A stretch of 64,000 nt of DNA from an uncultured bacterium (lineage in GTDB: Bacteria; Armatimonadota; Abditibacteriia; Abditibacteriales; Abditibacteriaceae). This document shows positions 1-63,700 of this stretch, in pieces (positions within the stretch are counted from its first letter, which is position 1; each line of letters opens with the position of its first letter). The stretch is from NCBI GenBank assembly GCA_963843795.1, contig CAWJLW010000006.1, positions 3,236,375 through 3,300,374 on the forward strand, in the 5' to 3' direction. Position numbers and translations under genes: made by a program. The notes under the pieces were generated by a model that saw only the letters and a program-made list of their open reading frames with translations, was not told the DNA's origin and made no database searches.

Positions 1-1845
1 ACGCGTGACGGGCTTTTGGTCGTTGGCTTCAGCGACGAAACGCGCCAACGTAGCATCGGCAAAGCTCATCGGCATTTGGCCACGCGAACGCAGCCAGATT
101 CCAACAAACGGCGCTTTCTTCGCCTGACGCACGACGGTTAAATCGAGCATCTTCTTGAAATCTTCAAAGGTATCGGGATCGGTCAAATCGGCGTTGGACG
201 CTTCGATCCATTCGATATGGGTATAAGCATCGTCGCGCGTTAAGGGTTTGGCGCGCCGCTCGTTGCCCAAACCTTTGTAGCCTTTGCTGCCCGAATATTC
301 GTAATACGGCAGCACACCAAAACCTTCTTGTCCCATCAATTCGACGATTTGGCCCCACAAATCTTTGGTATCGCCATCGAAGAACGCCCAATCGTTGCCA
401 CCCAACGCTGAAGTATCCCAATGTTGCACAGCACCGAATTCGAGCAAATCTTTGGCGTAAGTATTCATGCCCAGAAAGTGCATCTGCCGTGCTTTGTAGC
501 GGTACCAATCGAGCCGATTATCCACACCGCGCTCTGTGGCTTTGCTACTTTGGATCACCCCATCGGACATTTCTTCGCGCCAGAACAAATGGCGCTGCGG
601 CAAACCTTGCGGCAAATTCACCGGCGCGTTCAAATCTTGCGGTTCCAACACTTCAAACAAACGAATGCGCGCGACCGCTGCGCCCTGTGAAGCGGGAATG
701 TTATCGGCAGAGAACTGCGCGATAGTGACAGGAAAGCCATCTTCGGGTGCCAGCGCACGCTCGCCCGCGCCGCGAATGAAAGCGAGCTGTGGAAAACGGT
801 CGTGGAGCGAAAACAGCATCTTCCAGTTTTCGTACTTTCCGCTGAGAGGCAAATTGAGCGACTCATTGAAATTATCGACATATTTGGGATGCAGCGCATC
901 GCCCAGAGCGCGACCAGTCGCGAAGCCGCGCGAGGTTTCATTCCCACCATTCATCACGATCACGCTGCGCGAAGCGTCTTCGGGATATTCGATGTTCAGC
1001 ACATATTGTGCGCCCGGCTTAAGCAGTTTGTATTGTCCCAAACGCACCGTAAAATACGCGCTTTCTCCTTCAGTTTTGTTCAATACGCGCGCTTTGCGAC
1101 CCAGAATGGTTTCAACGCGGCTCGCGTTTTCCGGGCTTTGTGCGAATTTATGTCCGGGATTGTCCGCGCCCAGATCAACTTCATCGACAAGGGATAATTT
1201 GCCAAACGGTGCCATTTCGATAACGGGTCGCTGCGCCACTTCATCCTGCGCCCGTTTCAATTGTGCGGCGCGCTCGACTACTTCGCGCGCCGCAAGTACT
1301 TGCTGCGCCTGATAAGCGTTCCAACTCGCATCCGAAAACGCATCGAGCGCTAATTCGCCCGCATTGGCTCCGGCAGTTTTCAATTCGACGCGCAGATAGC
1401 GCGTTTTGGTGTTCAAGGGAATTTGCGCCCAACTGTTGTAGGCTTTGCCATCATAAGTGGCGATTTGTTTCCAATCGCCCGCTTTGCCCGCGTAAAAAAC
1501 CGTGTCGCCTTCGGCGTTGGTGTCATAGAGCCAGGCCGTTGCCAACGGCATTTCGCGCCCCAGATCAATGATGACCGCCGCCGGAAATTCTTTCTGAGTT
1601 TGCCAATCGGCTTTCCAACCATTTTGCGGCTGAGCTTTGGGCGATGTGCCAGATGGCTCGACGATTAAATTTTGCTCATCCGCCAGCCCCGAAAAATCGA
1701 CTTTCGCGTTTTCGCTTTGCAGCATCGCGGGCGTCAACGGAATGCGCACAGTTTGCGGTGCGGCAGTTTGCGCATGGCTGAGATTTGTTGACAGGATACT
1801 GGCCGCGCTCAGAAATAAAGTGCACAGAAACGATGATGGGTTCAT
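1..1845 (-). CDS. Large secreted protein, 3'-truncated by the window edge (>=615 aa); possible carbohydrate-active enzyme
   Basis: Absent from the ORF track because there is no stop in the window. Manual translation from ATG at 1845 is open to base 1: MNPSSFLCTLFLSAASILSTNLSHAQTAAP... It has a signal-peptide-like N-terminus and an aromatic-rich C-terminal region (FLGMNTYAKDLLEFG...LPYYEY). Function is inferred. Confidence 0.75.
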   Translation of the reverse strand, partial: MNPSSFLCTLFLSAASILSTNLSHAQTAAPQTVRIPLTPAMLQSENAKVDFSGLADEQNLIVEPSGTSPKAQPQNGWKADWQTQKEFPAAVIIDLGREMPLATAWLYDTNAEGDTVFYAGKAGDWKQIATYDGKAYNSWAQIPLNTKTRYLRVELKTAGANAGELALDAFSDASWNAYQAQQVLAAREVVERAAQLKRAQDEVAQRPVIEMAPFGKLSLVDEVDLGADNPGHKFAQSPENASRVETILGRKARVLNKTEGESAYFTVRLGQYKLLKPGAQYVLNIEYPEDASRSVIVMNGGNETSRGFATGRALGDALHPKYVDNFNESLNLPLSGKYENWKMLFSLHDRFPQLAFIRGAGERALAPEDGFPVTIAQFSADNIPASQGAAVARIRLFEVLEPQDLNAPVNLPQGLPQRHLFWREEMSDGVIQSSKATERGVDNRLDWYRYKARQMHFLGMNTYAKDLLEFGAVQHWDTSALGGNDWAFFDGDTKDLWGQIVELMGQEGFGVLPYYEYSGSKGYKGLGNERRAKPLTRDDAYTHIEWIEASNADLTDPDTFEDFKKMLDLTVVRQAKKAPFVGIWLRSRGQMPMSFADATLARFVAEANDQKPVTR

Positions 1846-2012
1846 AGAAATTTTTCGATTTTCAGCAGGTTTTGACGCTGCAAGTACTTGCAGAAGAATT
1901 TAGGAAGTGGCAATGAAGACAATTGTATAGAAATGATGTTGCGTGTCGCGGCAAGTACTTGGCCACAACCAAAAACCGGAACATCTGCGTTCAATCAGAG
2001 GTCTGGCTGTTC

Positions 2013-2525
2013 ATGTCTCTAATCCGCACACCACGCACGAAGTCGGTCTTTATTCTCGGCGCATTCCTCATGGCAACTGCGACAATAGCCATCGCGGGCC
2101 AAAAAACTGCACCCGAAGTGGCAGGGCAAAAAGCAATTTTGGGACAGCCTTTTCAGATTGCCGCCCACAAGAGTGTCCTGATTTCCTCAGAAAAGTTGAA
2201 GATTACGTTCGAGCGCGTGGTCGAAGATTCGCGGTGTCCTCAAGGCGTCGATTGCATATGGGCCGGACAGGCGACAGTGACACTTCGCGTGGAAAAAACT
2301 GGCGGCAAAGTCGGAAAAGCTGAATCCGTGAACCTCACAATCCAGGGCAGCCGTTATCCCACGGAAAATTCGGTTCGCAAGGTCGGGAAATATTGGATCA
2401 AACTGGTCGAGGTCGCACCCGAAAAAGGGCCGCCGCAGTCGCCGGGCACTATCGAACGCATCACACTGCAGGTGCAAAAGAAGCCGATTGCAACACCCAA
2501 AAATACAAAACCAGCAGAAAAGTAG
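2013..2525 (+). CDS. Secreted hypothetical protein with DSRCPxGVxCIWAG motif
   Basis: Hydrophobic signal after MSLIRTPR; the Cys-pair motif EDSRCPQGVDCIWAG is typical of a family of small exported proteins. Start moved from 1923 to the ATG at 2013. Confidence 0.7.
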   Translation: MSLIRTPRTKSVFILGAFLMATATIAIAGQKTAPEVAGQKAILGQPFQIAAHKSVLISSEKLKITFERVVEDSRCPQGVDCIWAGQATVTLRVEKTGGKVGKAESVNLTIQGSRYPTENSVRKVGKYWIKLVEVAPEKGPPQSPGTIERITLQVQKKPIATPKNTKPAEK

Positions 2526-2566
2526 AACAGCAACGTGGCATTATCAGGGTTTGATCGACACCCTTG

Positions 2567-3286
2567 TCAGCGACATCGTTTTTCCAAAACATCGGGTTGG
2601 CAAATCGTGATGTGACGTTCGCTATCTAAAGCGATGATTTTTCTACGGCGGAAGTCGTTGAGAATTTGATTGACGCGCACGCGCGAAGCACCGACGAGAT
2701 CGGACAGGTCGCTCTGCTTCAACCGCAAAGGCAGGAAAATCGGTGCGTTGGTTTGATCTTCGCTTTTATCGCGTTCGACCACGCCATACTCCGCGGCGAA
2801 CGAAAGCAATTGCGCGGCAACGCGGCCCGTGACATCGAGATGCGATAACAGTTGGACGTGCGAAGACAAAGTGCGCAAACGGCGCATCGTGCAGCGCACC
2901 AGATTGAGCGACATTTCGGGCATGGTGCGCAAACAACCCAAAAAAGCATCGCGCTCCATCACCCACAGCAGCGAATTTTCCAACGTAGCGACATTAGCCG
3001 AAATGGGCTCGCCATCGACAGCGCTAATCTCGCCCAGCAGTTCACCCGCACCGCAAACCGCTAAAATCGTATCCGAGCGATCACGGTTGGTGCAAAACAC
3101 TTTGACCGTGCCGCGCAGCACAATGGAAACCGCCGTTGCGGCCTTGCCCTGCCACAAAATCGTCGTGTTGATGGGAACATGGCGCACATGGCTTTGCAGC
3201 AAAATTTGCTGCCATTGCGAGGGCGTGAGATTTTGCAGCAACTTGTTATCGCGCAACAAAGCCGCGACCTGCGCTTTGTCCAACAA
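2567..3286 (-). CDS. Crp/Fnr family transcriptional regulator
   Basis: cNMP-binding fold (GELLGEISAVDG) and C-terminal HTH (LKQSDLSDLVGASRVRVNQIL). Confidence 0.92.
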   Translation of the reverse strand: MLDKAQVAALLRDNKLLQNLTPSQWQQILLQSHVRHVPINTTILWQGKAATAVSIVLRGTVKVFCTNRDRSDTILAVCGAGELLGEISAVDGEPISANVATLENSLLWVMERDAFLGCLRTMPEMSLNLVRCTMRRLRTLSSHVQLLSHLDVTGRVAAQLLSFAAEYGVVERDKSEDQTNAPIFLPLRLKQSDLSDLVGASRVRVNQILNDFRRRKIIALDSERHITICQPDVLEKRCR

Positions 3287-3397
3287 TTATCGAATGATTT
3301 GGTGCGACTTTTGGCTGACATGACAAGCACCTACCATGTGATATTTTCACGATCTCAAGCTGATCGTTATTTTAACACGCCGCAAGTACTTGCATTG

Positions 3398-5531
3398 TCA
3401 TTTTGGAAGCGGGGTGTTGGGAACGACGGGATTGGTGACAGTCGGATTAGGAGCGACTTGCAAACGACGTTTATCGTTACGGAATTTTTGTAAATCTTCT
3501 TGCAGGGCAGGCGATTGAATGCCATCGCGAACGATATCGGCCTCATCGCGCAGGACGCGCGGGGTGATGATGATGACGGTTTCGGTTTTAGTGTGGCGCG
3601 TGTTGGTTCCACGAAACAGCTTGCCGACCAAAGGCAAATCGCCCAAAACGGGAATTTTGCTCTGAGTTGTGGTATCGAAATCGTTCAACAAACCGCCGAT
3701 CACGATGCTTTCGCCATTTTTCACGCGCACATTGGTCGCGGCGCGGCGAAAAGTAATTTCGGGCAAGCCATTGACGCCGCGCCCCGTGACATCGCGCACT
3801 TCGGGTTCGACCAGAGCCACAACTTCATTACCATCATCTAAAATGCGCGGTGTGATGCGCAGCGAAATGCCGGAGCGAATCACTTCGAGCGTATTGTAAG
3901 CGAAGTTGGCCGAGCCGGTGACGATAGTGAAATAATTTTCGCGTCCGACTTCCATTTCTGCCGTTTGTCCATCGCCAGTCGCGATGCGCGGATTGGCGCG
4001 CAAACGTGCCGCGCCTTTTTGCACCAGCGCCGAAATTTGCACCAGTTCATCGTTGGCAATCGAAGAATAGGCGAAATTGCCGGTCGAACCGGTTGTCGTG
4101 CTGAACTGCAAAAAGCGCGTGGCGAAATTAAAGCCAATATCTTTCAAATCGTCTTGCGAAATCTCCAAAATCATCGCTTCGAGCATCACTTGTTCGCGCT
4201 GCTGATCCAAGATGCTCGATGTCGGCTTTGATGCGTTCGATGAGCGCGGGCGGCGCGGTGATAGCGATTTTATAAGTGGGCGCGGGCAAGCCAACATCCG
4301 CACTTGTCCCACTGTTGCGCGAGGCGGAACTGAGTGAGCCTCCCAAGCCGCCGCTGATACTACGTCGGCTGTTGAGATTGCTGGCCGAGCCACCGATTAC
4401 TGTGGGCACCGGTGTCGTTCCCTCGAATGATAAGTAGCGTCCATAAGGAAGGGACAACAATGACAGCACGACTTCGGGACGGACATTCTTAAGTTGCACG
4501 ATTTCAGTCCGCGAAAGTAGATAAAAGTTGGGGTTATTAGGGTCTGGCATACCCACCAAATAATAGCCGTCCATCTTTACAAAGGCAAAACCACCAGTCT
4601 GACTTACTATTGCCAGAGCACGCTCTAAAGGGACATCTTTGAGATCCAAACTCACGGTGCCTTGCACCGTGTTATCAGCAACAATAGTTACTCCAGTTTG
4701 ATCTGCGATATCAGACAGCGCTTGTTTGATGTCCGTCTCGGCAAAGATGTTAGTCACTAAAGGCTCTCCCTGCGCATTTTTGGAAATGCCAGGAGCAACA
4801 GGAGACTGAGCAGGAAGCGTAGGAGCAACAGCCGGAAGCGCAGGAACAACAGTGGGAGCCTGAGCAAGGAGCGCAGGAGCAACAGAGGGAGCCTGAGCCG
4901 GAAGCGCAGGAGCAATAGGAGCCTCGGCTATTTCTACTGGTGGAGATGGAACCGCTTGGGTGCTGCCTTCCAACTGCGATTGCTTAACCGCAACCTTTTC
5001 TCGCTCGGGCCTTTCTCCAAAGAGCTTGCGGTTGCCTAAAGCCCAGCGTGACTCCTGAGGCAACGACACCAACCGCATATACGAGTCCACTGGTTTAGTA
5101 GACAGCCTAGGCGCACTTACGCTGGGATGAAATTCGACACGCTGGACACTGGCGAGAGAAGCCTTCCGATTGCTGCGGCGGGGGGCTATAGGGGCAGCTA
5201 TTCTGGAAGTAACACCGAACCGTTGGTCCATAATACCAGACTTACCCGACACAACATCTGCAGGTGGCGTGCAAATAATACTACCATTCAAGATTCTATA
5301 GGTAAATCGAGTCAGTAGTTGTCCGGTTTCACTCTCAATGGTAATGGGAGACAGATGAGATGCATTCTTTCTTATTGTTGTTTTGGAAGCTGGCAACTTC
5401 GCGTTCGCCTTTAGATCATGATGGGTGCCCGTCACGGATTGGCGAGGCGTGATTTTATCTACTCCACTGAAAGCATGTGTGGGCAACAGTGGCGTAAATA
5501 ACCCAAAACAGATTAGGCTGGACAAAAACAT
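3398..5531 (-). CDS. Secretin (GspD/PilQ-like outer-membrane channel), split by one frameshift near 4205-4215
   Basis: ORF 4128-5732 holds STN/N0-like domains (FAETDIKQALSDIADQTGVTIVADNTVQGTVSL). ORF 3398-4393 holds the secretin domain (QVMLEAMILE, ANPRI, GESIVIGGL, KIPVLGDLPLVGKLF). The start at 5531 was chosen for its signal-like segment and is uncertain. Confidence 0.85.
4790..4925 (-). repeat. Imperfect tandem repeat encoding a Pro/Ala-rich linker in the secretin
   Basis: Translates as APALPAQAPSVAPALLAQAPTVVPALPAVAPTLPAQSPVAP, with ~33-bp units such as ggagcctgagc..gagcgcaggagcaacag. Confidence 0.75.
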
Positions 5532-5779
5532 CGGCGTGGGGGAAGTTAGGCAAACAAAATGGAAAGGGCCTTCTGATGATGCAGCATCGAATTGCATTGA
5601 TTCTCGCTCCTGCGAATATTGAGAGTTAAACGTGCGAAGTATCATACCACTTCTATTTGTAGCCTTGCTTTTACGACACATCCATACAACAGCATTGACA
5701 TTCCTAACTCTTTTTGCGACCGACATGAACACTATGCGAAGACAGCGCTGTCTTTCACTTTTACAAGAGGGAGCAGGAA

Positions 5780-7435
5780 TTAGGGCTTTGCTTTCTGAGA
5801 TGTCTTATCTGCTGGCTGCGTGACTTTAGGCATGGGGGCTGTGGGTTGGTCGGACTTCACCTTGGATTCATCTGTTTTAGATTCATCTACTTTGATCGGC
5901 ACCCGTAATTTTGCGTAAAGGTCTTCGCCATATTGATAGCTGATCTCTACTATATATTCGCCCGGCTCCAAGTCGGGTGGCAGCATTGTCAGGTTCTGCA
6001 ATTCCACACCGGGCAGGATGCCGCCACTTCCCTCAACGGGAACGGTAAGGCGAGACACCAGTTTGATACCGTCCTCAAGCACTGCGGCGCTGGGCACGAG
6101 TTGCAACGCTTGATTACCAGAATTACGAACAACAAAGCGGACACCTAACGGGCGTCCTCCGACAATATCAACGGTTCCGTTCACGACTTCAAGCATAGGC
6201 TTTGCAGTACCCGCCACGGATACGCTGCCGTTGATGGTTTCGGGGAGAGCGTTGGGGTTGCCGCGCTCAGTGACAGCCAAACCAAACCACAAATCGCCCT
6301 GCGCCTCTCGGTCGGCCTTGAGGGAAACACGAGCACTGCCGGTAGATTTAGGCCGTATCGTTAATGAGGCAGGTGTCACTGTCACGCTCAGTCCAGAAGG
6401 CAAGGTTTCACTTCCCAAACCCAAAACTCCTGAACTTGTCTGCTCCAACGATCTGGCAGCGAGGTCAACCGTAATGTCTCGATCGGAGAGATTACTGATG
6501 CGCAGCGACTGCGAGCGCAGGCTACCCGCAGGAATGATGAGCGAAATGCTGGAAGGCTCGAAGGTTAACGGAGGCAGTTCCAAAATCGTGGCAGCAGTTT
6601 CGGGTTTAGGTTCGCCTTTCACGATCACATAACGCGATACGACCGCAGGCAATAAGCGACTTCCAACCTGCGCTCGGAATTCAAGCGCGTAGTTGCCGTC
6701 CGGAATGGGCGGCATTCTGAACTGGAGGTAGCGCTTCGTTTCAGGAAACAAATTCGTTTTATCCAATTCAATAGTTTTGACTACAGTTCCGCTCACCACA
6801 TTCCTCAACTTGCTGCTAACTCCAAATATGGCATAACCGGCGCCATCGTTTTGAACGGGAAATTTGAGCAGGAAAGGCGAATCGGCCCCTTTGCCCTGCT
6901 TTTCCATCACAGGCGAAGAGATTTTGAGGAGAGGGCGCGCAGCACGACCGATAGTAAAGAGCACAGGAACATCAATGATGACGTTAGCAGTGGATCGGGA
7001 ACCAACGGGCTTGGCGTTGCATTGGATGATGCACCAGTAGCTGCCAGAGGTTCGCGGTGGCACAGAAAACTTCAGGCTCTGCATTTTCTTAGTGCCGGGC
7101 GCAAGAGTGATGCTCAAATCGCGCTCCGTGAACCAGGCAGAAGCATCACGAGGATGCTGCACATCATACTGAGGCCGGTAAGTCCAATCCTCAGGTAGAG
7201 ATGAGCGTACAGTCAAGCGCGTACTGGAAGCAACCAGAGAGGGATTCGCCACGGTGAGGCTGAGTGTTCCCTTCCGGCCTGCCGCCGATTGGAGATGGTA
7301 GTTAGTCGGCGAAATCAGCACTCCTCCTACGCCATTGTTTTCTGGCTGTGCCCATCCGCTTTGACAAAGGAGAAGGGCGAGATGCATACAAAAGAAAAAG
7401 AGGTAACGCGTTTTAACGTGCCGAAAAGCCATCAT
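5780..7435 (-). CDS. Secreted multi-Ig-fold protein resembling fimbrial chaperone (PapD-like) / WxL-partner proteins
   Basis: Signal peptide (ALLLCQSGWA). Two repeated halves, each with ISP/FEP..I.L...G....L.(V/I)xN, then a W(F/L)/L.VTP..(I/L)T(L/I).P element, and a VxNxG...(L/I).P...L Ig domain. Family assignment is by motif resemblance only. Confidence 0.55.
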   Translation of the reverse strand: MMAFRHVKTRYLFFFCMHLALLLCQSGWAQPENNGVGGVLISPTNYHLQSAAGRKGTLSLTVANPSLVASSTRLTVRSSLPEDWTYRPQYDVQHPRDASAWFTERDLSITLAPGTKKMQSLKFSVPPRTSGSYWCIIQCNAKPVGSRSTANVIIDVPVLFTIGRAARPLLKISSPVMEKQGKGADSPFLLKFPVQNDGAGYAIFGVSSKLRNVVSGTVVKTIELDKTNLFPETKRYLQFRMPPIPDGNYALEFRAQVGSRLLPAVVSRYVIVKGEPKPETAATILELPPLTFEPSSISLIIPAGSLRSQSLRISNLSDRDITVDLAARSLEQTSSGVLGLGSETLPSGLSVTVTPASLTIRPKSTGSARVSLKADREAQGDLWFGLAVTERGNPNALPETINGSVSVAGTAKPMLEVVNGTVDIVGGRPLGVRFVVRNSGNQALQLVPSAAVLEDGIKLVSRLTVPVEGSGGILPGVELQNLTMLPPDLEPGEYIVEISYQYGEDLYAKLRVPIKVDESKTDESKVKSDQPTAPMPKVTQPADKTSQKAKP

Positions 7436-7472
7436 GAACATTCAATCCTATCCTGTAAAGGGCTTGACGACA

Positions 7473-7504
7473 AAACGAACCCGGCATTTCTACCGGGTTC
7501 GTTT
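7473..7504 (-). terminator. Stem-loop between the pilin-like gene and the chaperone-like gene
   Basis: aaacgaacccgg-8 nt-ccgggttcgttt, with a short U-run on the minus strand. Confidence 0.65.
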
Positions 7505-7544
7505 CATCTACCCACTGTTTATCCTATTTAGGACGCAAGTTGTC

Positions 7545-8162
7545 TTAGTTCGAGGTGAAGGTAATTGTGGGACTAACGGTGTAGGTGCCTGCCGGAGAGC
7601 TGGTGGGAGCCGTCAACGTCTGTGCAAGCGTGTACTTCACATAGCCCTTCGTGGCCGACTGTGGATTTGAATCGTTAGCGAACGTCGTGTTCAAGTCCGA
7701 CGCGAGCATCTTGGATTGGCTGCCGCTCCCGACGCCGCCAGGAGCTGTTTCATAACTTTCCGTAACCTGCATCACCAACTCGTCGCCAGCACCGTTCGTG
7801 GGATTGCCAAAACCGCTCCAATGCCCAGTGAAATCAGCGTTGTGGTAAATTTCGAGTTCCGAAATTTTATCTGTGCTCTCGTTAGCGTCCCAGCCGTTGA
7901 GGGTCCAGGAGCCGCCCAGGCTGCCCTGGACGTAGAAGTAAGGCTGCACATCAACCGTGGTGGTCTGGCCGATAGTGATCGAGTCGCCACTCACAAAGTT
8001 GGTGCTTTCATGGGCGGCGTCGGGGCCATCAATGGCATCGGGGGTGAAGGCAAAGGTGCGCTGGCCATTGGGTCCAGGGGACGGATTGGTGGGGGCTGCG
8101 TGGGCGGCGCCAGCAATGGCAATTACCGAGGCGGCGGCGAGCAGAGTTTGAAAGTTCTTCAT
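7545..8162 (-). CDS. Small secreted pilin/fimbrial-subunit-like protein
   Basis: Signal peptide ending AHA; 205 aa, Ser/Thr/Gly-rich; the C-terminal PAGTYTVSPTITFTSN resembles the AGxY...(I/V)T(F/L) ending of Csu/CS1/WxL-type subunits. Confidence 0.55.
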   Translation of the reverse strand: MKNFQTLLAAASVIAIAGAAHAAPTNPSPGPNGQRTFAFTPDAIDGPDAAHESTNFVSGDSITIGQTTTVDVQPYFYVQGSLGGSWTLNGWDANESTDKISELEIYHNADFTGHWSGFGNPTNGAGDELVMQVTESYETAPGGVGSGSQSKMLASDLNTTFANDSNPQSATKGYVKYTLAQTLTAPTSSPAGTYTVSPTITFTSN

Positions 8163-8669
8163 AACGTTTTCCTATCAGCAAAAATAATTAAGGCCGGCTG
8201 ATTCGGCTTATTGGTTGGCGGTAACGCTGGTAAATTTTGCTCATCCCGCTCTTTCGAGCTTGGTTTTTGGAAGAGCGGGTTGCGTCGCCGATGGTTCTAA
8301 ATTCTCCTGTGTCCGTTAGGGACAAAAATAAATAGTTGCCGGGAGCACACTGGAATTTTTATTTTTTGGTTGGCGGCTCGTTCGGCACTTGCAATAGAAA
8401 TTATGCAACACGCCAAAATTTCGCTCTTCGTTGAATTCGCCCAATTTTTCGCGCACAATCCGACAGGTTTTTCGAATGCGCAAACTGTTAAAAACGACAC
8501 CCCCCAGCTCGACAATTAGGCCATACCTTTGAAATTGACATTTAACAACTCATTGGGCCTTATGACGCTTTTTTCTGGTCGAATTCAGTCCTGCAAGTAC
8601 TTGCAGGGCACAAAAACACAAACCGCCGAATCCATTTGGATTCGGCGGTTAAAACAGTGGGCAGAAAAT

Positions 8670-9056
8670 TTAAGCGTTTGAAGACAAAGTGCCTTTTTTC
8701 TGTGCCACGACGCTTTCGATAGTATCGAATAACTGTTGCGGCTCGTCGCCTTTAATGACCACGCCATCGGCGCCGTGTTCACGGGCCAGACGATGAGTTT
8801 CGGCGTCTTCGGCACCGGTCAACACGACGATGCTGCCCTCAAAGGCGGCTCTTAGATGCGGCAAACATTCGATAACGCTGCCATCGGACAACATCAAATC
8901 GAGCAGCAAAACATCGGGATGCTCGCTCTGGGTCAGCCGCAGGGCTTCGACACAATTGTCGGCTTCACCCACCACACACCATTGCTCCTGGCGCTCGCAG
9001 AGCAAACGCAAACCCTCCCGTAACATTTGATGATCTTCGACAATTAATATGCGCAT
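8670..9056 (-). CDS. Stand-alone response regulator receiver protein (NarL-type REC)
   Basis: ILIVEDH...PDVLLLDLML...VVLT...GADGVVIK; no output domain. Confidence 0.85.
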   Translation of the reverse strand: MRILIVEDHQMLREGLRLLCERQEQWCVVGEADNCVEALRLTQSEHPDVLLLDLMLSDGSVIECLPHLRAAFEGSIVVLTGAEDAETHRLAREHGADGVVIKGDEPQQLFDTIESVVAQKKGTLSSNA

Positions 9057-9225
9057 TTCCCTCACCTGCGCCAATAAAAGACGCTTTGCATATGAGATTA
9101 ACCGGTGACGTTAGACCTGTCATAGGAGCAAGCGCCAATTTTCTCAGCGATTTTCGCGGATAAAGCGCCTATCAAGACCGGCTCAATTGAGCCATCGCCT
9201 TGCGCCAGAAAGCCTCATGCCTTTG

Positions 9226-9981
9226 TCAATCTAACATGCAAATTTTGTGGCGAAAAGCGTAGATAACCAATTCCAAGCGGTCGGTAACTTCCAATTTATT
9301 AAAAATTGAGGTTAAATGGTGGCGCACGGTGGTTTCGCTGATGAAAAGTCGGTCGGCAATCTGCTTATTTTTCATACCGCACCCGATAAGTTCGATAACT
9401 TCGCGTTCGCGCGGCGACAAAGTGGCGATTTTAGCGATCTCGGGGTCGGGCTTGTGGCGCGAGGTATTCATATCTGCGATCACATCAGCCATTAAATTGC
9501 GATCGATCCACATTTCACCCTGATGAACACGCTCAATGGCTTTGAACAGCACATCGAAAGCCTGATCTTTCAATACCAACCCTTGTGCGCCCAGCGAAAT
9601 GGCGCGGCGATGCATCAAAACGTCGTGCCAGCCCGTTAAAATGATGATGCGTGCCTGAGGCGCGGCCTGTTGTAAAAGTGGCAGCAAATCGATACCAGTT
9701 TCATTTTTCAACAACAAATCGAGCAGAATAATATCCGCAGTTTCTTTTTGCAACCATTGCAATGCTTCCTGCCCGGTCGACGCTTCGCCAGCCACACGCA
9801 TATGAGGATATCGTTCTAACAGCCCACATAAGCTCCGGCGTACCATCGCGTGATCGTCCACCATTAGAAGGCGAATCGGTGCTGCACTCGCCCCCTCCTC
9901 GCCCAATGCCACGACGCTTGCGGCAGTCGCACCCACGAATTTTTTGTCCATAGTCGAACCGTATGATCGCATAATGCTCAC
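9226..9981 (-). CDS. NarL/LuxR-family DNA-binding response regulator
   Basis: REC domain plus LuxR HTH (LSPREREVIELIGCGMKNKQIADRLFISETTVRHHL). True start uncertain. Confidence 0.93.
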   Translation of the reverse strand: MSIMRSYGSTMDKKFVGATAASVVALGEEGASAAPIRLLMVDDHAMVRRSLCGLLERYPHMRVAGEASTGQEALQWLQKETADIILLDLLLKNETGIDLLPLLQQAAPQARIIILTGWHDVLMHRRAISLGAQGLVLKDQAFDVLFKAIERVHQGEMWIDRNLMADVIADMNTSRHKPDPEIAKIATLSPREREVIELIGCGMKNKQIADRLFISETTVRHHLTSIFNKLEVTDRLELVIYAFRHKICMLD

Positions 9982-10119
9982 ACTTATTCCTCGATGCCGA
10001 TCTTAACTACTCATTTTTGTAGTCAATCCAAACCTCTTCCCTATTATAAGGCCATCTCCACTTTTTAAATGTAAAGGATTTTACAAGCCTGTTTTTAACA
10101 AGAGTGGTTTTCACCATGC

Positions 10120-10155
10120 AAAAAGCCTTCTGCAAGTACTTGCAGAAGGCTTTTT
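10120..10155. terminator. 36-bp perfect palindrome centred on GCAAGTACTTGC; terminator-like after uvrA
   Basis: aaaaagccttctgcaagt|acttgcagaaggcttttt, 14 bp past the uvrA stop. Confidence 0.75.
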
Positions 10156-10169
10156 AGGGTCTGGCTCGT

Positions 10170-13100: not shown

Positions 13101-13312
13101 TCTTCTTCCTTCATTTCATCAACCGGCGGCGCAAGTACTTGCGAGGCTGGTTTCGGAGTTTTTAGGGGAGATTTGGTAGCAGAATTTTTCGCCGCGCCAT
13201 TCTTGGCGGCGACAGTTTTCGTGGGAGTTTTGAGAATTTTATTTGTGGTCGTTTTGGCTTTAGAAGTGGATTTGGGCTTGGTTTCAGAAGTGGGCACAGC
13301 GGCTCCTTGCAA
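10170..13312 (-). CDS. uvrA: Excinuclease ABC subunit A, with two apparent frameshifts (~11278 and ~11180)
   Basis: Two Walker A motifs ([18 protein letters not shown]), two LSGGEAQR signatures and zinc fingers. The linker [17 protein letters not shown] lies in a third frame (ORF 11143-11379). Start codon uncertain. Confidence 0.95.
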
Positions 13313-13431
13313 TTGGAAAGCAGTGAGAATAGTTTGACAAACTGACGCGCGACACCCGCCGCGCGTTGCGAAACGCGGGCCGATACAGTTATTCGTGAGC
13401 GTGTTTAATCTTTACGACAATCTAAAAACAC

Positions 13432-52920: not shown

Positions 52921-53017
52921 AAAATGCCTAAAAAGTGCCGCGCAGTCTAATGCGTAGAAGTTGACGGACGAAATTTAACAACTGGCAAATTCAAAAAATA
53001 TAAATGCTCAAAAATCG

Positions 53018-54592: not shown

Positions 54593-54805
54593 TTTGCCAC
54601 ACACGAGTTGATTTTGTGTTCCTTATGAATGCTTAATCCTATAAAACCAAAACCCGCATCAAATCTCACACCGCACAAGCTCGACGCCCCGAATCAATTT
54701 TGTGAGCAACAAGTACTTGCAGCACCCCTTCGCAACTCTCGATATTCATAGCTCTCTGATTTTAAATCATCTCGCTTCCAAATTGAGGATTCACAGGAAA
54801 TTTTT

Positions 54806-57331
54806 ATGCACCAAGTCAAAAACCAAGCTCGCGCGCTTTCGCGCCAAACTCAAATTTTCGGCTTCATTGCTGGCGTCGCTGCGTTGATGAGCGCTGCGGC
54901 GCACGCGCAATCCGCGTCGAATCTGGCAACGAAAGAAGCGCCGATTGCGGTTTTCAGCCAATCGCAATTTCCTTACATTGGCGGTTATGGCGTGCTGCCG
55001 CCGCGCAAAATTGCCGAGCAGTTTCAAAGCAGCGGACTGGCGGCCACGACGTTATCGCTGGAGCAGTTGCAAGAAGCCGGAGTTTTGACGCCCGCGCATT
55101 ATGCGGCGCTGGTGCTACCGTATGGCAATGCGTTTCCGGCTGAAGCGTTTCCGGCTTTGCGCGCTTATCAAAAAGCGGGTGGAATTCTCGTTCTCAATGG
55201 CGTGCCGTTCACGCATCCGATTGTGCGCAAGGCCGACGCGTGGAGCGATTTGGGGCATTCGGGAAAGTATCTCGCGCACAGCGCTGAAGGAATTGGCAGC
55301 GGCAATTTCACCGATCCGTACAATGGCGTTTTGAAAGTGGCGACGCCGGCTTTCGCGCCCAATCCGCTCGGCTTGCGCGCCGAGGATTTGCCGCGCGAAA
55401 AAACCTCGCTGCAAGTACTTGCAGCGTCCAGTTTGCCGCCCGAAGACGAAGTCGTGCCCTTAATCGAAATCATTGACGACCGCACGCAGCAAAGCCACGC
55501 GGTTTCTGCGCTAATTCGTCATCACTGCGCGCAATTCGATGGCGCTTTGACGCTGTGGCTCGGCCCGATTGCCAACGGCACCAGCGGCGACGACGCGTTT
55601 CTGGCGACGCAGCTTTTACTGCGCTCGACGGCGTGGGCGTTGCGCGAAAACAAGCGCATTTCGCCCGCGCAGATGCAAGCGGTTTTTCAAGCGGCGTCCA
55701 AGCTCGCTAAACCCACGCCGCTGCCGTCCGACCTCAAATTTCGCGCGCTACCGCGTCCGTGGGGCGACACGTATTTGCCCAAATCGAAACGGCCCGCGCG
55801 CCGTCTGACGGTCGTGAATTTGAAGAATCTGCCCAAAGAACAAGCGATTGCGCTGACGTGTTTGCAAGCCTTATCGAGCCGTCGTCAGCCGAGCTTATAT
55901 TTGCTGACCGATGAAGCCTCGCAGTTCTTTTTGGATTGGCACGTCGAGCAAAAATATCTCGATGGCTACAATGTCGCTGCCGATTGGAAAGCGCCGTTCG
56001 CCAAATTTAAGCGCGATTACAAAGGTGCGGTTGTCGCCGATGAAAAATTGTATCACGGCCAGTTGCTGGCGTTAAACGTGGCGACGATGGAAGATTTGAT
56101 CGTGCTAACGCCCGAAATGGCGCGCGAATTGAAAATTCCGGTCAAGATTGATTTGCGCGGTCGTTTCAAAACTTACGCGCAGGGTTTGCAGTGGGTCATC
56201 GACAAATACGGCGACCAAATCAGTCGCCATCTCGCGCACTACGCCGCGCCCACGCGCCTCGACTTTCCTTCTTACGCTTATGCGATGCAGTGGCACGGCT
56301 TGCTGCTGTGGCCTTCTGGCCCGGCTGAAATCGAGAAGCCCGGCGTCGATGCCTTGCAGGAAAAAATCGTTGCCGCGCGTGCCTTTGCGCGCATGGCTTC
56401 TGATGGCGTCGTGCTGGGTTTTCCCTACGCGGGAACGGGAATCGGTTTGGGCGAAGGCGATGGCGTCGAACTGACGAGCGCTTACGGTTTGGGCCACATC
56501 GCATCCGATTACGCGGCGAATTTAACCATCTTGAGCGGATTTCCCGCGCCGGATTTGAAGCAACAGAAACAAGCCGCCGGGCCAAAGTTGGAGCGCGACA
56601 AAATTTATATCGCGCTCAACGTGTCCGATGGCGATAACATGAGCGTGTGGAACGGCTGGAAGAATAACTATTTCACGTCACCGCGCGTCGGTGAATTTCC
56701 CATCGCTTTTGGCAGCGCGCCCGCGATGCTCGATACCGAACCCGGCGTGCTGCAATGGTATTACAAAAAAGGCGGCGCGACGACCGAATTTTTCCCCGAC
56801 GTTTCCGGCATCGCCTACACGCAGCCCGATAATTTCGCCAAAGCTTTCGCGCCCGCCGAACGCGACAAAGTATGGCAGCGCTACATCGACTGGACAAAAC
56901 GCTACATGGCGCGCCTCGACATGCACACGCTGCGCACCGTCGGCGGCAGCGATGAAAACCTGATTCGCTACGCCAAGCAGATTCCGCTGCACTCGATTTT
57001 CGGCGATATGGGCCGCTATTCGGGTCGCGAAGGTATCGCCAATCTCACCTACACCTTGCCACCAAGCGCGGTGGGCGGAACGGGCATGCCGGTTTTCCGC
57101 GCCGTCACCAGTTGGCGCTATGGCGCCGACGGATTCTTGCCCGAAGTGCGCACTCAAGTCGGCACGCAACGACCGGCATTCGTTAACGGTTTCGTCCACG
57201 CGTGGACATGGAACAACACGCGCGACATCGCCAAAATTTATGATGCACGCGACAAAGATATGGTTTTCGTCACGCCCACACAATTGGCCGCGCTGTATCG
57301 TGAAGCGGTGGCGCAGGGAATGACGAAGTGA
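54806..57331 (+). CDS. Secreted GxGYxYP-family-like putative glycoside hydrolase with an N-terminal GATase-like domain
   Basis: Signal peptide ending AHA; LQAL..R.QP.LY, E..GVEL.S.YG, SD...NLT.LSG, KIYIAL.VSDGDN, P.MLD..P..LQWYY and SGIAYTQP (variant of SGxGYxYP). Confidence 0.72.
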   Translation: MHQVKNQARALSRQTQIFGFIAGVAALMSAAAHAQSASNLATKEAPIAVFSQSQFPYIGGYGVLPPRKIAEQFQSSGLAATTLSLEQLQEAGVLTPAHYAALVLPYGNAFPAEAFPALRAYQKAGGILVLNGVPFTHPIVRKADAWSDLGHSGKYLAHSAEGIGSGNFTDPYNGVLKVATPAFAPNPLGLRAEDLPREKTSLQVLAASSLPPEDEVVPLIEIIDDRTQQSHAVSALIRHHCAQFDGALTLWLGPIANGTSGDDAFLATQLLLRSTAWALRENKRISPAQMQAVFQAASKLAKPTPLPSDLKFRALPRPWGDTYLPKSKRPARRLTVVNLKNLPKEQAIALTCLQALSSRRQPSLYLLTDEASQFFLDWHVEQKYLDGYNVAADWKAPFAKFKRDYKGAVVADEKLYHGQLLALNVATMEDLIVLTPEMARELKIPVKIDLRGRFKTYAQGLQWVIDKYGDQISRHLAHYAAPTRLDFPSYAYAMQWHGLLLWPSGPAEIEKPGVDALQEKIVAARAFARMASDGVVLGFPYAGTGIGLGEGDGVELTSAYGLGHIASDYAANLTILSGFPAPDLKQQKQAAGPKLERDKIYIALNVSDGDNMSVWNGWKNNYFTSPRVGEFPIAFGSAPAMLDTEPGVLQWYYKKGGATTEFFPDVSGIAYTQPDNFAKAFAPAERDKVWQRYIDWTKRYMARLDMHTLRTVGGSDENLIRYAKQIPLHSIFGDMGRYSGREGIANLTYTLPPSAVGGTGMPVFRAVTSWRYGADGFLPEVRTQVGTQRPAFVNGFVHAWTWNNTRDIAKIYDARDKDMVFVTPTQLAALYREAVAQGMTK

Positions 57332-57360
57332 AAATGTGTGCTGCAAGTACTTGCAGCACG

Positions 57361-60644: not shown

Positions 60645-60760
60645 CTTTTCTCCTGTTTTTCTACTTTTTGCTTTCAGTTGTGGCGGCAGATTTCATGCCG
60701 CAAGAAGCGTTGATTATGTTGCAAGTACTTGCAACATAATTATAGACAACAATTTAACGT

Positions 60761-63700
60761 TTATGGCGCGCTTTCAAAGGTTGCGTGCCACAAATACTTT
60801 GTAGAGTTTCGCAAAGGCAAAGGCGGGCGCTGATAACCGTTTTCCAGACTTGCCACGACGGTAGGAATGGCAACTTGCGGATTCGGATTGAAGCCTCCGA
60901 TGCGCCACAAAACTCCCCATCCATTTAAGCGATAACCGCCGATGAAATCGTCGTTGCGCCCCGCGATCAGGGTGATGTGGTCGGGCGCGCCACCGCCGCG
61001 TGGCAAGCCGCGATTTACGACGCTGCTGTGTTGCGCGATGGTGGCAGTTGTTGCGCCCAACAAAATTTCGGCATCACGGCCCACGCTCAAAGGTTCCGCT
61101 GCCTGCGCGACTTCGCCGCTGCCCATCGGCAAGCCCAATTGCGCCAAGCCCGCCGCGCCGATATTTTCGCGCTGCCATTTTCCATTCTCGTCCAGCCACG
61201 CCGCGCCGTAAAACGAAGCCGCGCCGGTCTCCCACCACTGCCCGCCATTTTGCACGTAGTTCCGAATTGCGTCCAGCGTTTGCGACCACGCGCCAGCCGC
61301 ACTTTCGGGAATGGTTTCAGTGTGCGGATTGATGATAGCGAAATACTTTTCGCGCCCGCTTTTCAGTGCGGCAAGTACTTGCTGCGGCGTTGAGAGCGTT
61401 TCGATTTCCAATCCGAATTGTTTTGCCAACCGGGAATTTTGCAACGCTTCGCGCCACATCGCAGGCGTAATTTCAGTCCAGCTCCAGCCGACAGCTTCGC
61501 CGAAATCTATCACGCCGATGCGCCGCTTTTCGCCATTGATAAGCGGCGCATCGCGGGGCGCAACATTTGTCAGAGCAGCGGGAATTTTCACGTTTTGTGC
61601 CTTGTCGTGCGCGGGAGTTTTGAGTTTTATCACGTTATTAGCAACCGTGAAATTTTGCGCGGTCTGGTTATCGAAACGCAGTTTGCCCGCGCCCGCAAAC
61701 GGCGCGGGCAAACTCACGCGCACATCGCTTGATTCGGGCGCGTAAATCCACAGTTCGCCACCTTTAGCATTGCTTTGAGCGATGAAAGCTGCTTCGTCGG
61801 GTTTTCCGCTATCAGCAGCTAACAAGCCGGGCGCACGCGCCGTGAAACTGGTTTGACCCGAGCGCAAATCGGCGTTAATCGTCACATCGCCATAAGCCGC
61901 GCTGATTTTCTGAGCGATGGCGTCGTGGGTAAAATTGTGGATTGGCGCGCCGGTCGAGCGCGCGCAGACCGATTTCTGAATGCGGTCGAGCCACAGCAGC
62001 CACTGGCGCGCGTCTTCGTTTTGTAGCGCGCTGGCGGGAGTGGAGTAGCTCATGTTGTAGCCGAGCGCTAAAGTCCAGGCGAGCGTGGACGGGTCGGTGA
62101 CGAACTGGCCTAGATCGTGGTGCAAAAAAGCGACTTTATCGTGCGCCATAATCTGCGCCAAAGGAAATAATTCCCAACAATTGGCGGGCCAGCGGTCGCT
62201 GAGCAAGCGCCGCCATTCGGGCGCGCCTCCGGTTGGAACCGTGCTGAAACTCATGCCACAAAACTGAGCTTCCCAGTTCATAACGCGATCCCAACCGTTT
62301 TCGGTCGAGAGAGGTCGCGTCTGTGCATCTTCACTCGCTTGTCGCACCATACCATCGATATAAGCGTAAGGCGTGGGCGATGAGGGATTGAGATCGTATT
62401 TCCAACTGCGCGCTCCGACCTGATCTTGAAACAGCACATCGACACCCAAATCCTGCACGAACTGCGCGCGAATTTTCCGATTCACCGCGCGTACGGCGGG
62501 ATGCCAGAAGGTGACCAGCCAACCATCGTTGGCACCGTATTTATCGTAATGCGGATTGCCATCCAACGCCAAAGCCAGCGGCGCTGTACCTTCGCGCAAA
62601 AACGTCGGGCCCCGCGGATGGTCACACCACCACGTCGGGTTGGTATAAGGCACCAGCAAATGTCCACGCGCGTGACCGTCATCGAACAACTGCTTCATTT
62701 GCGCCATCGTGCCGAAATTGGCATTGGGCGGCAGGTGGTCGGGCAATTCTTTATCGAAGCCGCCATGCAAATAATCTGCGAAATGAATTTGGGTGGGAAC
62801 CGGCAAATACTGTAAATTGGCGAGCTTCTGGGCCGCATTGCCGCTGTAATAAACCAACACCGAGCGCTTCCATTTGTCCAATAATTCGGGCGTCATTTTG
62901 TCTTGCAAACGGCGCGTGAAACCGTTGTCCCGCACATACTGACGCGCTTGATTTTCCGCACTATCGCCGACTGTCAAGCGCACAATCGGCGATTGCCAGC
63001 TTTGCCCGCTGGCGACAAAAGTTGCGAAATGACGATCCAGAAAACCTCCCTGCTCGTCGCTGCCGATTTCCCAATGCAAGGGCACAAAAATCGGTTCCGC
63101 AGCGGTTGCGGCTGTTACGAAATTGTGCGGCTGTGGGTTTTGAGGCTGCACACCGTAGAGCGAAGTACTTGCAGAGGCCTCTGCGCCATCGAAATGAAAA
63201 AAATCGGCGAATGAGCCGGGATAATCGGAGCCATAACTGAAATGCAATTCGGGTTTGAGCGCGCTGTAAAACGAGTAGCCGCCGGTTTCAAACCAGTGTC
63301 CGCCACCGCGCACCCAACCCGCGATAGCCTGCGCAGTTGCAATTGTGTCGCTGTTTTCGGGCACCGGTAGCCATTCGCCATACGGATTGACAATCGCCGC
63401 CCAATCGTCTTTTAAAGCCGCTATCATCTGAGCGGTCGAGTTAATTTCGATGAACTGCGCCGTGCCTGAATTGACGACCGGCAATTTCTGCAACCGAGCG
63501 CGCCATTCATCAACCGTCACACCCGCCCAACCACCGCTTTGCGGGCCGTTTTTTAAGGCCAACAAACCGATTTTACGACGTGGAGCGGGCGCTTTCGCTG
63601 CTTCGCTCGCCACATGATTCACCGTCGCGGCCACGAGAGCCGCGATATTTGGAATCGCCACGTTTTCCACGCCACCTCCGACGCGCCACAGCAAACCTGC

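Follow-up and report, generated by a model that had tools for sequence, protein, structure and literature searches.

The 4.3-Mb genome of an uncultured, soil-type member of the family Abditibacteriaceae (G000; 11 contigs, 92% complete), whose phylum we take to be Armatimonadota (GTDB), is saturated with a 12-bp palindrome, GCAAGTACTTGC, which occurs in 2,567 exact copies, on all 11 contigs and at one per 1.7 kb. Its relatives carry either variant forms of this word or no such word at all, which gives it the look of a self-DNA tag, and our tentative reading, which we put a little short of an even chance, is that of a HIP1/uptake-sequence-like self tag for natural transformation, bound by a dimeric reader that would bend double-stranded DNA; GTAC methylation, the reader and the role in transformation are parts of it that we infer. 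The literature searched yielded no description of the motif.

Abundance and distribution of the palindrome

In the window, by which we mean the whole 64-kb stretch of DNA analysed, there are 40 exact copies from 1292 to 61382, the number given by the first-pass annotation, and none of 100 dinucleotide shuffles of the window contained any. At up to two mismatches there are 51 matches (40 exact, 5 with one mismatch and 6 with two), where 2.84 are expected by chance; the variants that the annotation had put at about nine are thus there, with the two-mismatch class partly chance given that expectation. The extension to CTGCAAGTACTTGCAG that it had called frequent is seen in 15 of the 40 copies. 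Genome-wide, Markov models of order 1-3 predict 0.2-0.7 copies, and the motif-masked genome 0.12, so that, as with HIP1, a palindrome far above chance recurs across the genome about once per kb and is not confined to a single contig. Spacing is even (CV 0.77, compared with 1.115-1.25 in 200 random placements) and the thousands of copies show no origin or terminus bias; the gaps in their coverage fall on IS and type I restriction islands, and foreign islands are depleted of them. One-off variants number 506, far above chance, and affect all positions, 140 of them breaking GTAC. In the window, the one-mismatch variants (1951, 19844, 30760, 43508 and 54709, spanning 1951..54720) may be decayed or nascent copies.

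Coding copies

About 70% of the copies in the genome are intergenic and 757 are coding; by our own gene calls, the window holds 14 coding and 26 intergenic copies (20 in tandem, 4 in divergent and 2 in convergent spacers). Window copies lie in a putative coding sequence (QVLA frame; 1292..1303), within the 5' portion of the uvrA reading frame as two copies 51 bp, or 5 helical turns, apart (13080..13142), and in genes for a GNAT acetyltransferase (KYL frame; 17689..17700), a glycosyltransferase (QVL frame; 24493..24504), a thioesterase (32068..32079), an ABC permease (QVLA frame; 33282..33293), a TPR protein (35027..35038), a family 2 glycosyltransferase (38880..38891), a further glycosyltransferase (KYL frame; 40783..40794), a CheW protein (51905..51916), a GxGYxYP protein (55411..55422) and a DUF6259 protein (61371..61382). 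The copy in valS (30234..30245) encodes ASTC, a peptide kept in all three members of the ValS 90% cluster and different in other genera. Coding copies alter protein sequence, and the cost can be seen in the peptide QVLA, which occurs 566 times in the genome against a mean of 43 for its permutations.

Coding copies fill gaps that have no spacer copy within about 1 kb: among genes of 600-1200 nt, there are 0.384, 0.225 and 0.069 copies/kb when 0, 1 or 2 of the flanking spacers bear the motif (313, 616 and 301 genes, respectively). When aligned with relatives, coding copies are free of gaps in 6 of 6 cases (G001) and 16 of 22 (G009), and the position is a site in both genomes in only 2 of the 6 and none of the 22. 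Most coding copies therefore arose by substitution, as in HIP1-type palindromes, with a possible minority of insertions.

Intergenic copies, hairpins and helical phasing

The flanks had been described as unrelated between copies, and this is wrong. Across the genome they carry the consensus AG-CGC-N-WWWT and AT tracts with a 10.5-bp period, to about 70 bp on each side of the motif, and 488 intergenic copies sit in perfect hairpins with arms of at least 8 bp; of the 293 copies in convergent spacers, 184 have arms this long. A further 1,182 intergenic copies have arms below 5 bp, 267 lie in divergent spacers, and no arms are shared between copies beyond the short consensus. In the window, the copy at 10132-10143, downstream of uvrA, centres a terminator-like perfect hairpin with 12-bp arms and A/T tails (10120..10155); other hairpins surround the copies at 13444-13455 (12-bp arms; 13432..13467), 14385-14396 (16-bp arms; 14369..14412), 16208-16219 (11-bp arms; 16197..16230) and, in a divergent spacer, 19018-19029 (15-bp arms; 19003..19044). 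The copy at 60721-60732 has 8-bp arms (60713..60740), and 5-bp arms are found in a divergent (18724..18735) and a convergent (57343..57354) spacer. Close neighbours include a doublet at 26388 (hairpin, 12-bp arms) and 26428, whose 40-bp separation is the commonest close spacing class (26376..26439), two direct tandems of copies 13 bp apart (42442..42466 and 46463..46487), and an exact copy directly after the valS stop that is followed at 30760 by the one-mismatch variant GCAGGTACTTGC (30744..30771). Additional copies lie in the divergent spacer upstream of valS (27930..27941), in a very short tandem spacer (33170..33181), just downstream of a secretin ORF (3382..3393), in the chemotaxis cluster (50080..50091), and in the intergenic stretches at 1880..1891, 8593..8604, 20691..20702, 22020..22031, 23222..23233, 36375..36386 and 41261..41272.

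Measured 12-60 bp beyond the motif, the AT wave has an amplitude of 0.044 around coding copies and 0.052 in non-hairpin spacers, compared with at most 0.012 in 300 matched draws; with distance from the dyad it decays (0.066, 0.027, 0.015, 0.010 over the first 100 bp or so), and it is also visible around the G009 version of the motif. Neighbouring copies 18-110 bp apart are helically phased (143 pairs, R 0.36, a value reached by none of 20,000 jittered sets). Together, the wave and the phased neighbours imply a dimeric protein that bends double-stranded DNA. Both halves of the motif are required: TGCAAGTAC is followed by TTGC in 3,405 of 3,723 cases, and half-sites alone are not enriched.

Dialects in relatives

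The exact 12-mer is species-specific, with 0-3 copies in each of 40 relatives, and what carriers have in common is an AGTAC core with dialects. The lineage-specific range proposed by the annotation thus applies to a genome-wide signal built on that core, but the 12-mer itself belongs to one species. As in uptake sequences, the dialects surround an invariant core. Six of 26 relatives have other AGTAC-containing forms: CAAAGTACTTTG in G001, TCGAGTACTCGA in G009, G015 and G019, GAGTACTC in G012, and in G006 a 24-bp dyad, AGTACGGTCGA-NN-TCGACCGTACT, with 2,412 half-sites. Further dialects were found in 19 of 80 metagenome loci, and the forms in G006 and in one locus (L197) are 24-bp hairpins. A sister clade (G007, G016 and G018) instead carries 2,676-3,503 copies per genome, a density similar to that of the palindrome, of an unrelated, asymmetric and unoriented word without GTAC, CAGCCACG, which forms inverted-pair hairpins in G016; this is the classical pattern of DUS. 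Many other relatives have purged GTAC, and some sister lineages are without any such word. A few tailed phages repeat a 14-mer form of the motif in their spacers; should this lineage be their host, a bias in uptake would not account for those copies.

Methyltransferase and competence genes

The genome encodes an orphan adenine methyltransferase (C6:2517365-2518135, P0006) that is conserved in Abditibacteriaceae. In 8 of 80 loci an R.PabI-family gene is immediately followed by a homolog with 57-62% identity, and GTAC is found there 7 times where 96 are expected. R.PabI is described as cutting GTAC, and its partner enzyme as making GTm6AC (PMC10273834). Because its homologs adjoin these GTAC-cutting enzymes, the orphan enzyme probably methylates GTAC to GTm6AC, a target assigned by association with the PabI-family neighbours. 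It is present in 7 of 7 AGTAC-type genomes and in 21 of 27 family genomes, most of them motif-free and some with GTAC purged.

Competence genes do not track the motif among the 27 family genomes either. Our genome has comEC, comEA, comM, a DprA-motif protein and a type IV pilus operon; comEC is found in 27 of the 27, comM in 24 and the marker pilin of the pilus operon in 25, and the operon has the same layout in motif-rich and motif-free genomes, with no extra pilin in those of carriers. In our assembly the pilus operon is interrupted by 2-6 frame breaks, at 0.14-0.44/kb where the background rate is 0.085/kb, and the 8 kb examined in motif-rich G006 and G009 include no more of comM than its 3' part, so transformation may be impaired in some carriers. 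A ComP profile matched nothing, its controls included, and no ComP/ComN-type receptor was identified. No reader was found. Since neither the methyltransferase nor the competence genes track the motif, the tracking test suggested by the annotation singles out no mechanism.

A proposed self-DNA tag and its alternatives

As a self tag, the palindrome would be bound by a dimeric sequence-specific protein that bends double-stranded DNA, with GTAC at its centre methylated to GTm6AC by the family's orphan methyltransferase. It would act in uptake and/or recombination of incoming DNA, like DUS and USS, perhaps in a methylation-dependent manner as for HIP1, which when methylated raises transformation >100-fold according to a preprint (bioRxiv 2024.09.10.611283). 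If site-bearing DNA were favoured, site-creating point mutations would spread until each stretch of roughly 1 kb had one, spacers being filled first and genes only where no spacer copy is near; many terminators would be rebuilt around the site, and altered reader specificity would rewrite a genome into a new dialect. In favour of this reading are the dialects, the even spacing, the gap filling, the cost to proteins, the holes at foreign islands, the competence genes and the methyltransferase with its probable GTAC target. There is precedent in DUS, whose described dialects share a CTG core and, in Simonsiella and Kingella, include a dyad form (PMC3630211), and in the helically phased T-tracts described for USS (PMC3458573). 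Against this reading, no gene set tracks the motif and no receptor was found, and the AT wave, at about 70 bp on both sides, is longer than the two USS tracts. DUS and USS proper are, moreover, not palindromes.

The main rival, which we consider rather unlikely, is a chromosome-organising site at which a dimeric nucleoid protein of the cytoplasm, perhaps one that senses hemimethylation, would bind the dyad and wrap about 140 bp, so that each gene-sized interval had its own anchor, barrier to supercoiling or point for loading topoisomerase. The need for both halves, the AT wave that extends to the G009 dialect, the phased neighbours and the one-per-kb coverage would all suit such a site, and an architectural role has been proposed for HIP1 (PMC5861425). 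However, neither SeqA nor a histone fold was found in the genome, where there is a single HU and the ParB proteins are all ordinary ones that have 5 separate parS sites of their own; an essential structural role fits poorly with sister lineages that do without the word or have purged GTAC; and wholesale dialect replacement, with so few of the thousands of sites in common with G001 and G009, is more readily explained by drive than by weak selection on each site. Elhai's model for HIP1, in which mismatch repair is biased around methylated sites and turns near-matches into complete palindromes until the genome saturates at about one per kb, the word itself needing no function, seems to us improbable and is the least supported of the three mechanisms earlier proposed. 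Its set point, as described (PMC4390886), matches the saturation range of about 1 kb here, the motif core is a probable methyltransferase site and a MutL-motif protein is present, but a C5 methyltransferase and a nicking enzyme are prerequisites of the model, and in this 92% complete genome there was no match to the former (PF00145) and MutH was not found. One-off variants of HIP1 are concentrated at the word ends, whereas ours are not, and the model leaves unexplained the AT wave, the 24-bp split dialect, the GTAC-free word of the sister clade and the methyltransferase where GTAC is purged.

It is very doubtful that an HUH transposase spread the motif as a REP- or MITE-like mobile repeat, or that an Ssn-type single-strand nuclease targets it, as the mostly intergenic location, the long hairpins and the 24-bp hairpin dialects might suggest. 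A gap does lie near 6 of the 22 coding sites aligned with G009, compared with 7.6% of all windows (p 0.005), but low-identity alignment windows have gaps 19-46% of the time anyway, and most coding copies align without any. The copies are evenly spread and share no long arms, and the sole Y1 transposase match is weak and partial, with a single motif nearby. We found no conserved element of 20-40 bp that is paired with a copy-flanked HUH transposase, and no small single-domain GIY-YIG nuclease or clustered hairpin repeats; the GIY-YIG matches fall in ORFs of 450 and 672 aa, unlike the small Ssn proteins. An RNA signal, either a terminator loop or a processing hairpin, is hardly credible: the long arms in convergent spacers would fit, but the short-armed, coding and divergent-spacer copies would not. 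There is no downstream U-tract bias (459 vs 485), double changes that compensate each other are few (21 over 18 types), and G.U-compatible variants are just slightly favoured (108 vs 84), in a test with little power given that the hairpin-arm control is equally weak (40 vs 32).

Beyond the self tag itself, one may imagine, with still less confidence than the chromosome-organising site, an undescribed, switchable genome-tagging system in Abditibacteriaceae: a dimeric reader of a GTm6AC-centred dyad would bend or wrap about 140 bp and be needed about once per kb, the methyl mark would derive, by domestication, from a restriction system for GTAC to which other members responded with a purge of GTAC, and reader changes would repeatedly have rewritten genomes into palindromic, split-dyad or asymmetric words. 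If true, words of the HIP1 and DUS types would be linked by a single mechanism.

Comparison with known systems

To our knowledge, the HIP1 reader and the cause of genome saturation by such words have been open questions for three decades, and there are only two bacterial families with established uptake sequences. Abditibacteriaceae offers contrasts largely absent in cyanobacteria (close relatives with other dialects, a split form, an asymmetric word and a purged core) and has a cultured member, in which oligonucleotides specific to a dialect could pull down the reader. Any mechanism has to satisfy the physical constraints set by the helical AT wave and by gap filling over about 1 kb; dialects could serve as binning markers, and probable GTAC methylation matters for genetic tools in the group.

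Like parS, Noc, matS and SeqA/GATC sites, these are palindromic chromosomal sites of putative protein binding, and the helical phasing of neighbours recalls SeqA, but there are thousands of them and they are unbiased with respect to origin and terminus. With REP/BIME (RAYT) and NTS/dRS3 (Ssn) they share an intergenic, palindromic and often hairpin nature, but not conserved arms, a flanked RAYT or small GIY-YIG gene, or clustering, and 30% lie in coding sequence without indels. DUS of Neisseriaceae and USS of Pasteurellaceae also vary in dialects around a constant core, occur at a similar density (600-1,200 per Mb), sit at permissive coding positions, have been co-opted into terminators and come with competence genes; helically phased AT tracts are shared with USS, and a dyad form with Simonsiella/Kingella DUS. 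Those words are asymmetric and often in inverted pairs, as is CAGCCACG, whereas GCAAGTACTTGC is a perfect palindrome with a probable methylation site; its AT wave, unlike that of USS, runs on both sides over 5-6 turns, and no receptor of the ComP/ComN type was identified.

The first-pass annotation's view of a HIP1/DUS-like, lineage-specific, genome-wide signal is supported, given the even, island-depleted distribution, the lack of MITE/REP features and a GTAC core that is the probable target of a conserved orphan methyltransferase. Like GCGATCGC (HIP1 of cyanobacteria) and its alternative palindromes, GCAAGTACTTGC is a perfect, substitution-made palindrome found about once per 1-2 kb; a conserved orphan adenine methyltransferase probably acts on its centre, foreign DNA is depleted of it, and some lineages have alternative words in its place. 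The word and the host phylum differ, however, and the motif spans 12-16 bp around GTAC rather than 8 bp around GATC, in a genome without a C5 methyltransferase, with one-off variants that are not end-concentrated, mostly intergenic copies and rapid dialect turnover that includes a 24-bp split form. The long 10.5-bp AT wave and phased neighbours have no HIP1 counterpart in the portions of the literature searched.

Abundance and distribution of the palindrome

The palindrome GCAAGTACTTGC occurs 40 times exactly in the window and never in 100 shuffles of it, in agreement with the first-pass annotation, which had counted 40 copies and judged them far above chance. Allowing up to two mismatches adds another 11 matches, where chance predicts 2.84. 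The same annotation had proposed a genome-wide signal, and a k-mer count against a Markov background confirms this: the source genome, G000 (4.30 Mb in 11 contigs, 92% complete), holds 2,567 copies where models of order 1-3 predict fewer than one. Homologs of one of its proteins carry the names Abditibacterium utsteinense and Abditibacteriaceae bacterium, so that the genome belongs to the family Abditibacteriaceae. Along its 3.6-Mb contig C6, most 50-kb bins contain 25-43 copies, and copy number shows no link to GC skew. The motif is depleted in foreign DNA: two large holes in C6 (56-82 kb and 518-543 kb) contain transposases of IS elements and genes for type I restriction. The last 33 kb of C6 (beyond 3,590,136) have no motif and a GC content of about 65%, and represent either a recent island or a mis-join. 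The densest motif clusters in G000 yielded no candidate gene. We rejected an assembly artefact because the motif is present on 11 of 11 contigs and related words occur in independently assembled relatives; short-read contigs from run X1 also match the window, with joins that fall on copies of the motif, a weak check as X1 may be the source sample.

Anatomy and helical signatures

Both halves of the motif are needed, as TTGC directly follows TGCAAGTAC in 3,405 of 3,723 cases, and the 506 one-mismatch variants in G000 affect every position. The flanks, previously described as unrelated, in fact share the consensus AG-CGC-N-WWWT, which surrounds coding, divergent and non-hairpin copies alike, together with periodic AT tracts. 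Measured from the dyad, AT dinucleotides peak at about 15, 25, 36, 46 and 56 bp, and the 10.5-bp amplitude measured 12-60 bp beyond the motif is 0.044 for coding copies and 0.052 for non-hairpin spacers, versus at most 0.012 in 300 control draws matched for the first tract. The wave fades out by about 80-100 bp. Around the AGTAC-containing word ("dialect") of the relative G009 it is weaker with the same phase; for the remaining dialects the samples were either too small or without a wave. Neighbouring copies 18-110 bp apart are themselves helically phased (143 pairs, R 0.36), and are so when the 36-46-bp class is left out (110 pairs, R 0.30), neither value being reached in 20,000 jittered sets. 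This phasing may be due in part to common AT tracts.

Perfect hairpins with arms of at least 8 bp additionally surround 488 intergenic copies. U tracts show no strand bias (459 versus 485), G.U-compatible variants are in slight excess in a low-power test, and the flank consensus is common to coding, divergent and non-hairpin copies; we therefore infer that the signal acts as double-stranded DNA and that hairpin terminators are secondary, built around copies.

Placement and origin of copies

According to gene calls made in this analysis (3,499 genes, 86% coding), 757 copies in G000 are coding and 1,789 intergenic, the latter about 14 times denser per base. Convergent spacers hold 293 copies in 444 spacers, divergent ones 267 in 463 and tandem ones 1,229 in 2,180. 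Coding copies are read as QVLA (495), KYL (147) or ASTC (115), and QVLA appears 566 times in the proteome, its permutations 43 times on average; 503 of these QVLA occurrences are spelt with the codons of the motif. Spacing is more even (CV 0.77) than when copies are placed at random in the same proportions of coding and spacer sequence (1.115-1.25). In genes 600-1200 nt long, copy density is 0.384, 0.225 and 0.069 per kb when zero, one and two of their flanking spacers bear the motif, an effect that is absent in genes longer than 2.4 kb and past about 1-1.5 kb. It follows that the advantage conferred by a site levels off over about 1 kb.

When orthologous genes of G000 and its relative G001 were aligned, sites were gap-free in six of six cases and the position was common to two; for G009 the corresponding numbers were 16 and 0 of 22. 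The six gapped G009 sites exceed the 7.6% background (p 0.005), but windows similarly low in identity were gapped in 19-46% of cases. In a small, diverged set of 35 syntenic gene pairs, the spacer carries a copy in both genomes in 7, only in G000 in 5, only in G009 in 9 and in neither in 14. The gene alignments show that most coding copies arose by substitution at tolerant positions followed by turnover, and insertion may have produced some.

Dialects and other words in relatives

Exact GCAAGTACTTGC is present in 0-3 copies in each of 40 relatives. The proposal of a lineage-specific signal is supported: the 12-mer itself is specific to the species, and some relatives have in common with it an AGTAC core set in different words. 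AGTACT is abundant (2,813-4,733 occurrences) in six genomes (G000, G001, G009, G012, G015 and G019), whereas the remaining 21 of the family have 1-285 each. Dialect words of relatives include CAAAGTACTTTG, TCGAGTACTCGA and GAGTACTC; in G006 the word is a 24-bp dyad (2,412 half-sites) whose two GTAC are separated by 18 bp, a layout found with another centre in metagenome locus L197. Among 80 methyltransferase-bearing metagenome loci, several of them short or redundant, 19 are motif-rich, adding the words AAAAGTACTTTT, GGAGTACTCC and CAAGTACTTG and a loose RAGTACTY once per 220-270 bp. An Acidobacteriota genome was rejected as a carrier: it gave the one match to a 22-base pattern among the matches listed, and its 4 copies equal its control.

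One clade (G007, G016 and G018; for example loci L032, L034 and L176) carries the asymmetric, unoriented CAGCCACG, a separate DUS-like candidate. Each of these genomes has 2,676-3,503 copies, while the other 24 have 130-530. In G016, CAGCCACG also forms inverted-pair hairpins. Longer repeats, perhaps REP- or CRISPR-like, resemble ACGACCAAGCTCACCCGAC in G017 (L041) and TTCCACAAAAAATGAAG in G020 (L083/L052).

Thirteen genomes belonging to genera g2 and g5 are nearly devoid of GTAC (for example 0 versus 43 expected and 1 versus 58, in 9-57-kb samples), where AGTACT occurs once in 6.0 Mb (G005) and once in 4.1 Mb (G042); CTAG is likewise near zero in many of them. Genome-wide counts cover only three patterns in the 17 genomes in which no word was detected, the rest being taken from samples. 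In ValS (IQ-TREE) and ComEC trees (FastTree, as for the methyltransferase), carriers are interleaved with motif-free genomes, deep-fork support being modest, which points to repeated gains, losses or switches.

Methyltransferase findings (METHYLTRANSFERASE)

A search by N6/N4 family found one such methyltransferase in G000, a 256-aa DPPY enzyme (C6:2517365-2518135), and a profile search found no C5 methyltransferase; a type I system sits in an island. Of the 27 family genomes, 21 have an ortholog of the DPPY enzyme (broken in one), among them all seven AGTAC-type carriers; four other genomes of the class have none, and no gene next to it is conserved among carriers. With only 7 of the 21 being AGTAC-type, the suggestion that an enzyme's presence might track the motif does not hold, and the methyltransferase accounts for neither the dialects nor the presence of the motif.

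Named relatives gave no specificity. Homologs from outside the family (57-62% identity) lie directly behind an R.PabI-family gene (Pfam E 1e-7; PDB R.PabI E 2e-18) at eight of 80 loci, of which three are nearly identical, and GTAC occurs at these eight loci 7 times versus 96 expected. R.PabI acts on GTAC and M.PabI yields GTm6AC, according to passages of PMC10273834. Across 38 non-enriched loci of at least 7 kb, the median observed/expected ratio of GTAC is 0.37, level with CTAG. G010, G021 and G023 lack the enzyme and have near-normal GTAC, but GTAC is purged in G013 and G016, where the enzyme was likewise not found. Taken together, the R.PabI-family neighbours, the product of M.PabI and the depletion of GTAC make GTm6AC, on sequence grounds, the probable product.

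A 210-240-aa protein adjoins the methyltransferase at L198:12317-13048 and in L087 (G017), L083 (G020), L183, L207, L228, L247, L253 and L259. Leads from the Atlas suggest a restriction fold like that of PvuII, with relatives in viruses; the protein is absent from G000 and is a candidate GTAC-cutting enzyme. In L096 (G005), L098 (G014) and L060 (G041), a HARE-HTH and Mrr-like gene is directly upstream of the methyltransferase.

Candidate readers, competence genes and phages

Profile searches of G000 for a protein that might recognise the motif found no SeqA, MutH or histone fold, and no small GIY-YIG, RAYT or HARE-HTH protein; HARE-HTH occurs in four of the 27 genomes, none of which has the AGTAC word. 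ComP and PabI profiles matched nothing, controls included, and so are uninformative. Five parS-like sites beside parA/parB (C6:3511617-3515040) we take to be distinct from the motif.

Competence genes occur family-wide. The G000 pilus operon (C6:385.8-402.5 kb) has several frame breaks, which may be sequencing errors or decay; in the window, secretin (3398-5732), uvrA (10170-13312) and catalase (58996-60644) are each split in two ORFs, and a background of 0.06-0.085 breaks/kb suggests assembly errors. Of comM, the stretches fetched from two carriers, G006 (L547) and G009 (L548), contain only the 3' part; the gene appears interrupted there, as would be expected if mobile elements insert in it. 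Fragments from the 3' end of comM are multiplied in g2 (up to 21 matches, in G010) and single elsewhere.

Tailed-phage contigs of 37-47% GC (L420-L422, L427, L439, L440, L446-L448, L453, L484 and L486) carry TGCAAGTACTTGCA repeatedly in their spacers, mostly in the form GTGCAAGTACTTGCAC, often just before a ribosome-binding site and five times in one 15-kb contig. Viral scans returned single 16-mer matches in 6 loci and two distant methyltransferase relatives; for the G009 dialect, single matches came from 119 stretches, and no locus inspected had two copies.

Possible mechanisms

Very probably, the anatomy of the motif reflects a DNA-bending dimeric protein that recognises the dyad and whose benefit saturates over about 1 kb. 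That the motif is a transformation tag has somewhat less than an even chance. In DUS/USS, too, dialects surround a core, AT tracts are phased, terminators have been co-opted and a dyad form exists (excerpts of PMC3630211, PMC3458573 and PMC12616744), methylated HIP1 raises transformation (in portions of bioRxiv 2024.09.10.611283 and PMC13756078), and a sister clade has its asymmetric word; against this stand the family-wide occurrence of competence genes, the pilus frame breaks of G000 and the seemingly interrupted comM.

A nucleoid site, the main rival, is less likely, with neither SeqA nor a histone fold detected in G000. We consider a repair ratchet, as outlined in part of PMC4390886, improbable: C5 enzyme and MutH were not found in G000, and one-mismatch variants affect all positions. 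Spread as a mobile repeat, for which sections of PMC11893778 describe the Ssn system, is very improbable with neither RAYT nor small GIY-YIG detected in G000, and an RNA signal, at odds with the unbiased U tracts, is the most improbable of all.

Comparison with known systems

In the main texts searched, we found no description of GCAAGTACTTGC or of Armatimonad iterated palindromes, nor, among the papers listed on Abditibacteri genomes, any that deals with repeats, and GTAC is absent from the portion of the main text of PMC4752239 consulted. Our analysis adds a methyltransferase that probably acts on GTAC, the helical AT wave and the phasing of copies, gap filling over 1 kb, split-dyad and asymmetric words, and the purging of GTAC in sister lineages. 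The motif appears to work like HIP1 and DUS/USS, but it differs from HIP1 in sequence, phylum and C5-enzyme features and, being palindromic, does not have the asymmetry of DUS; it is therefore a variant of this kind of signal and a member of neither family.
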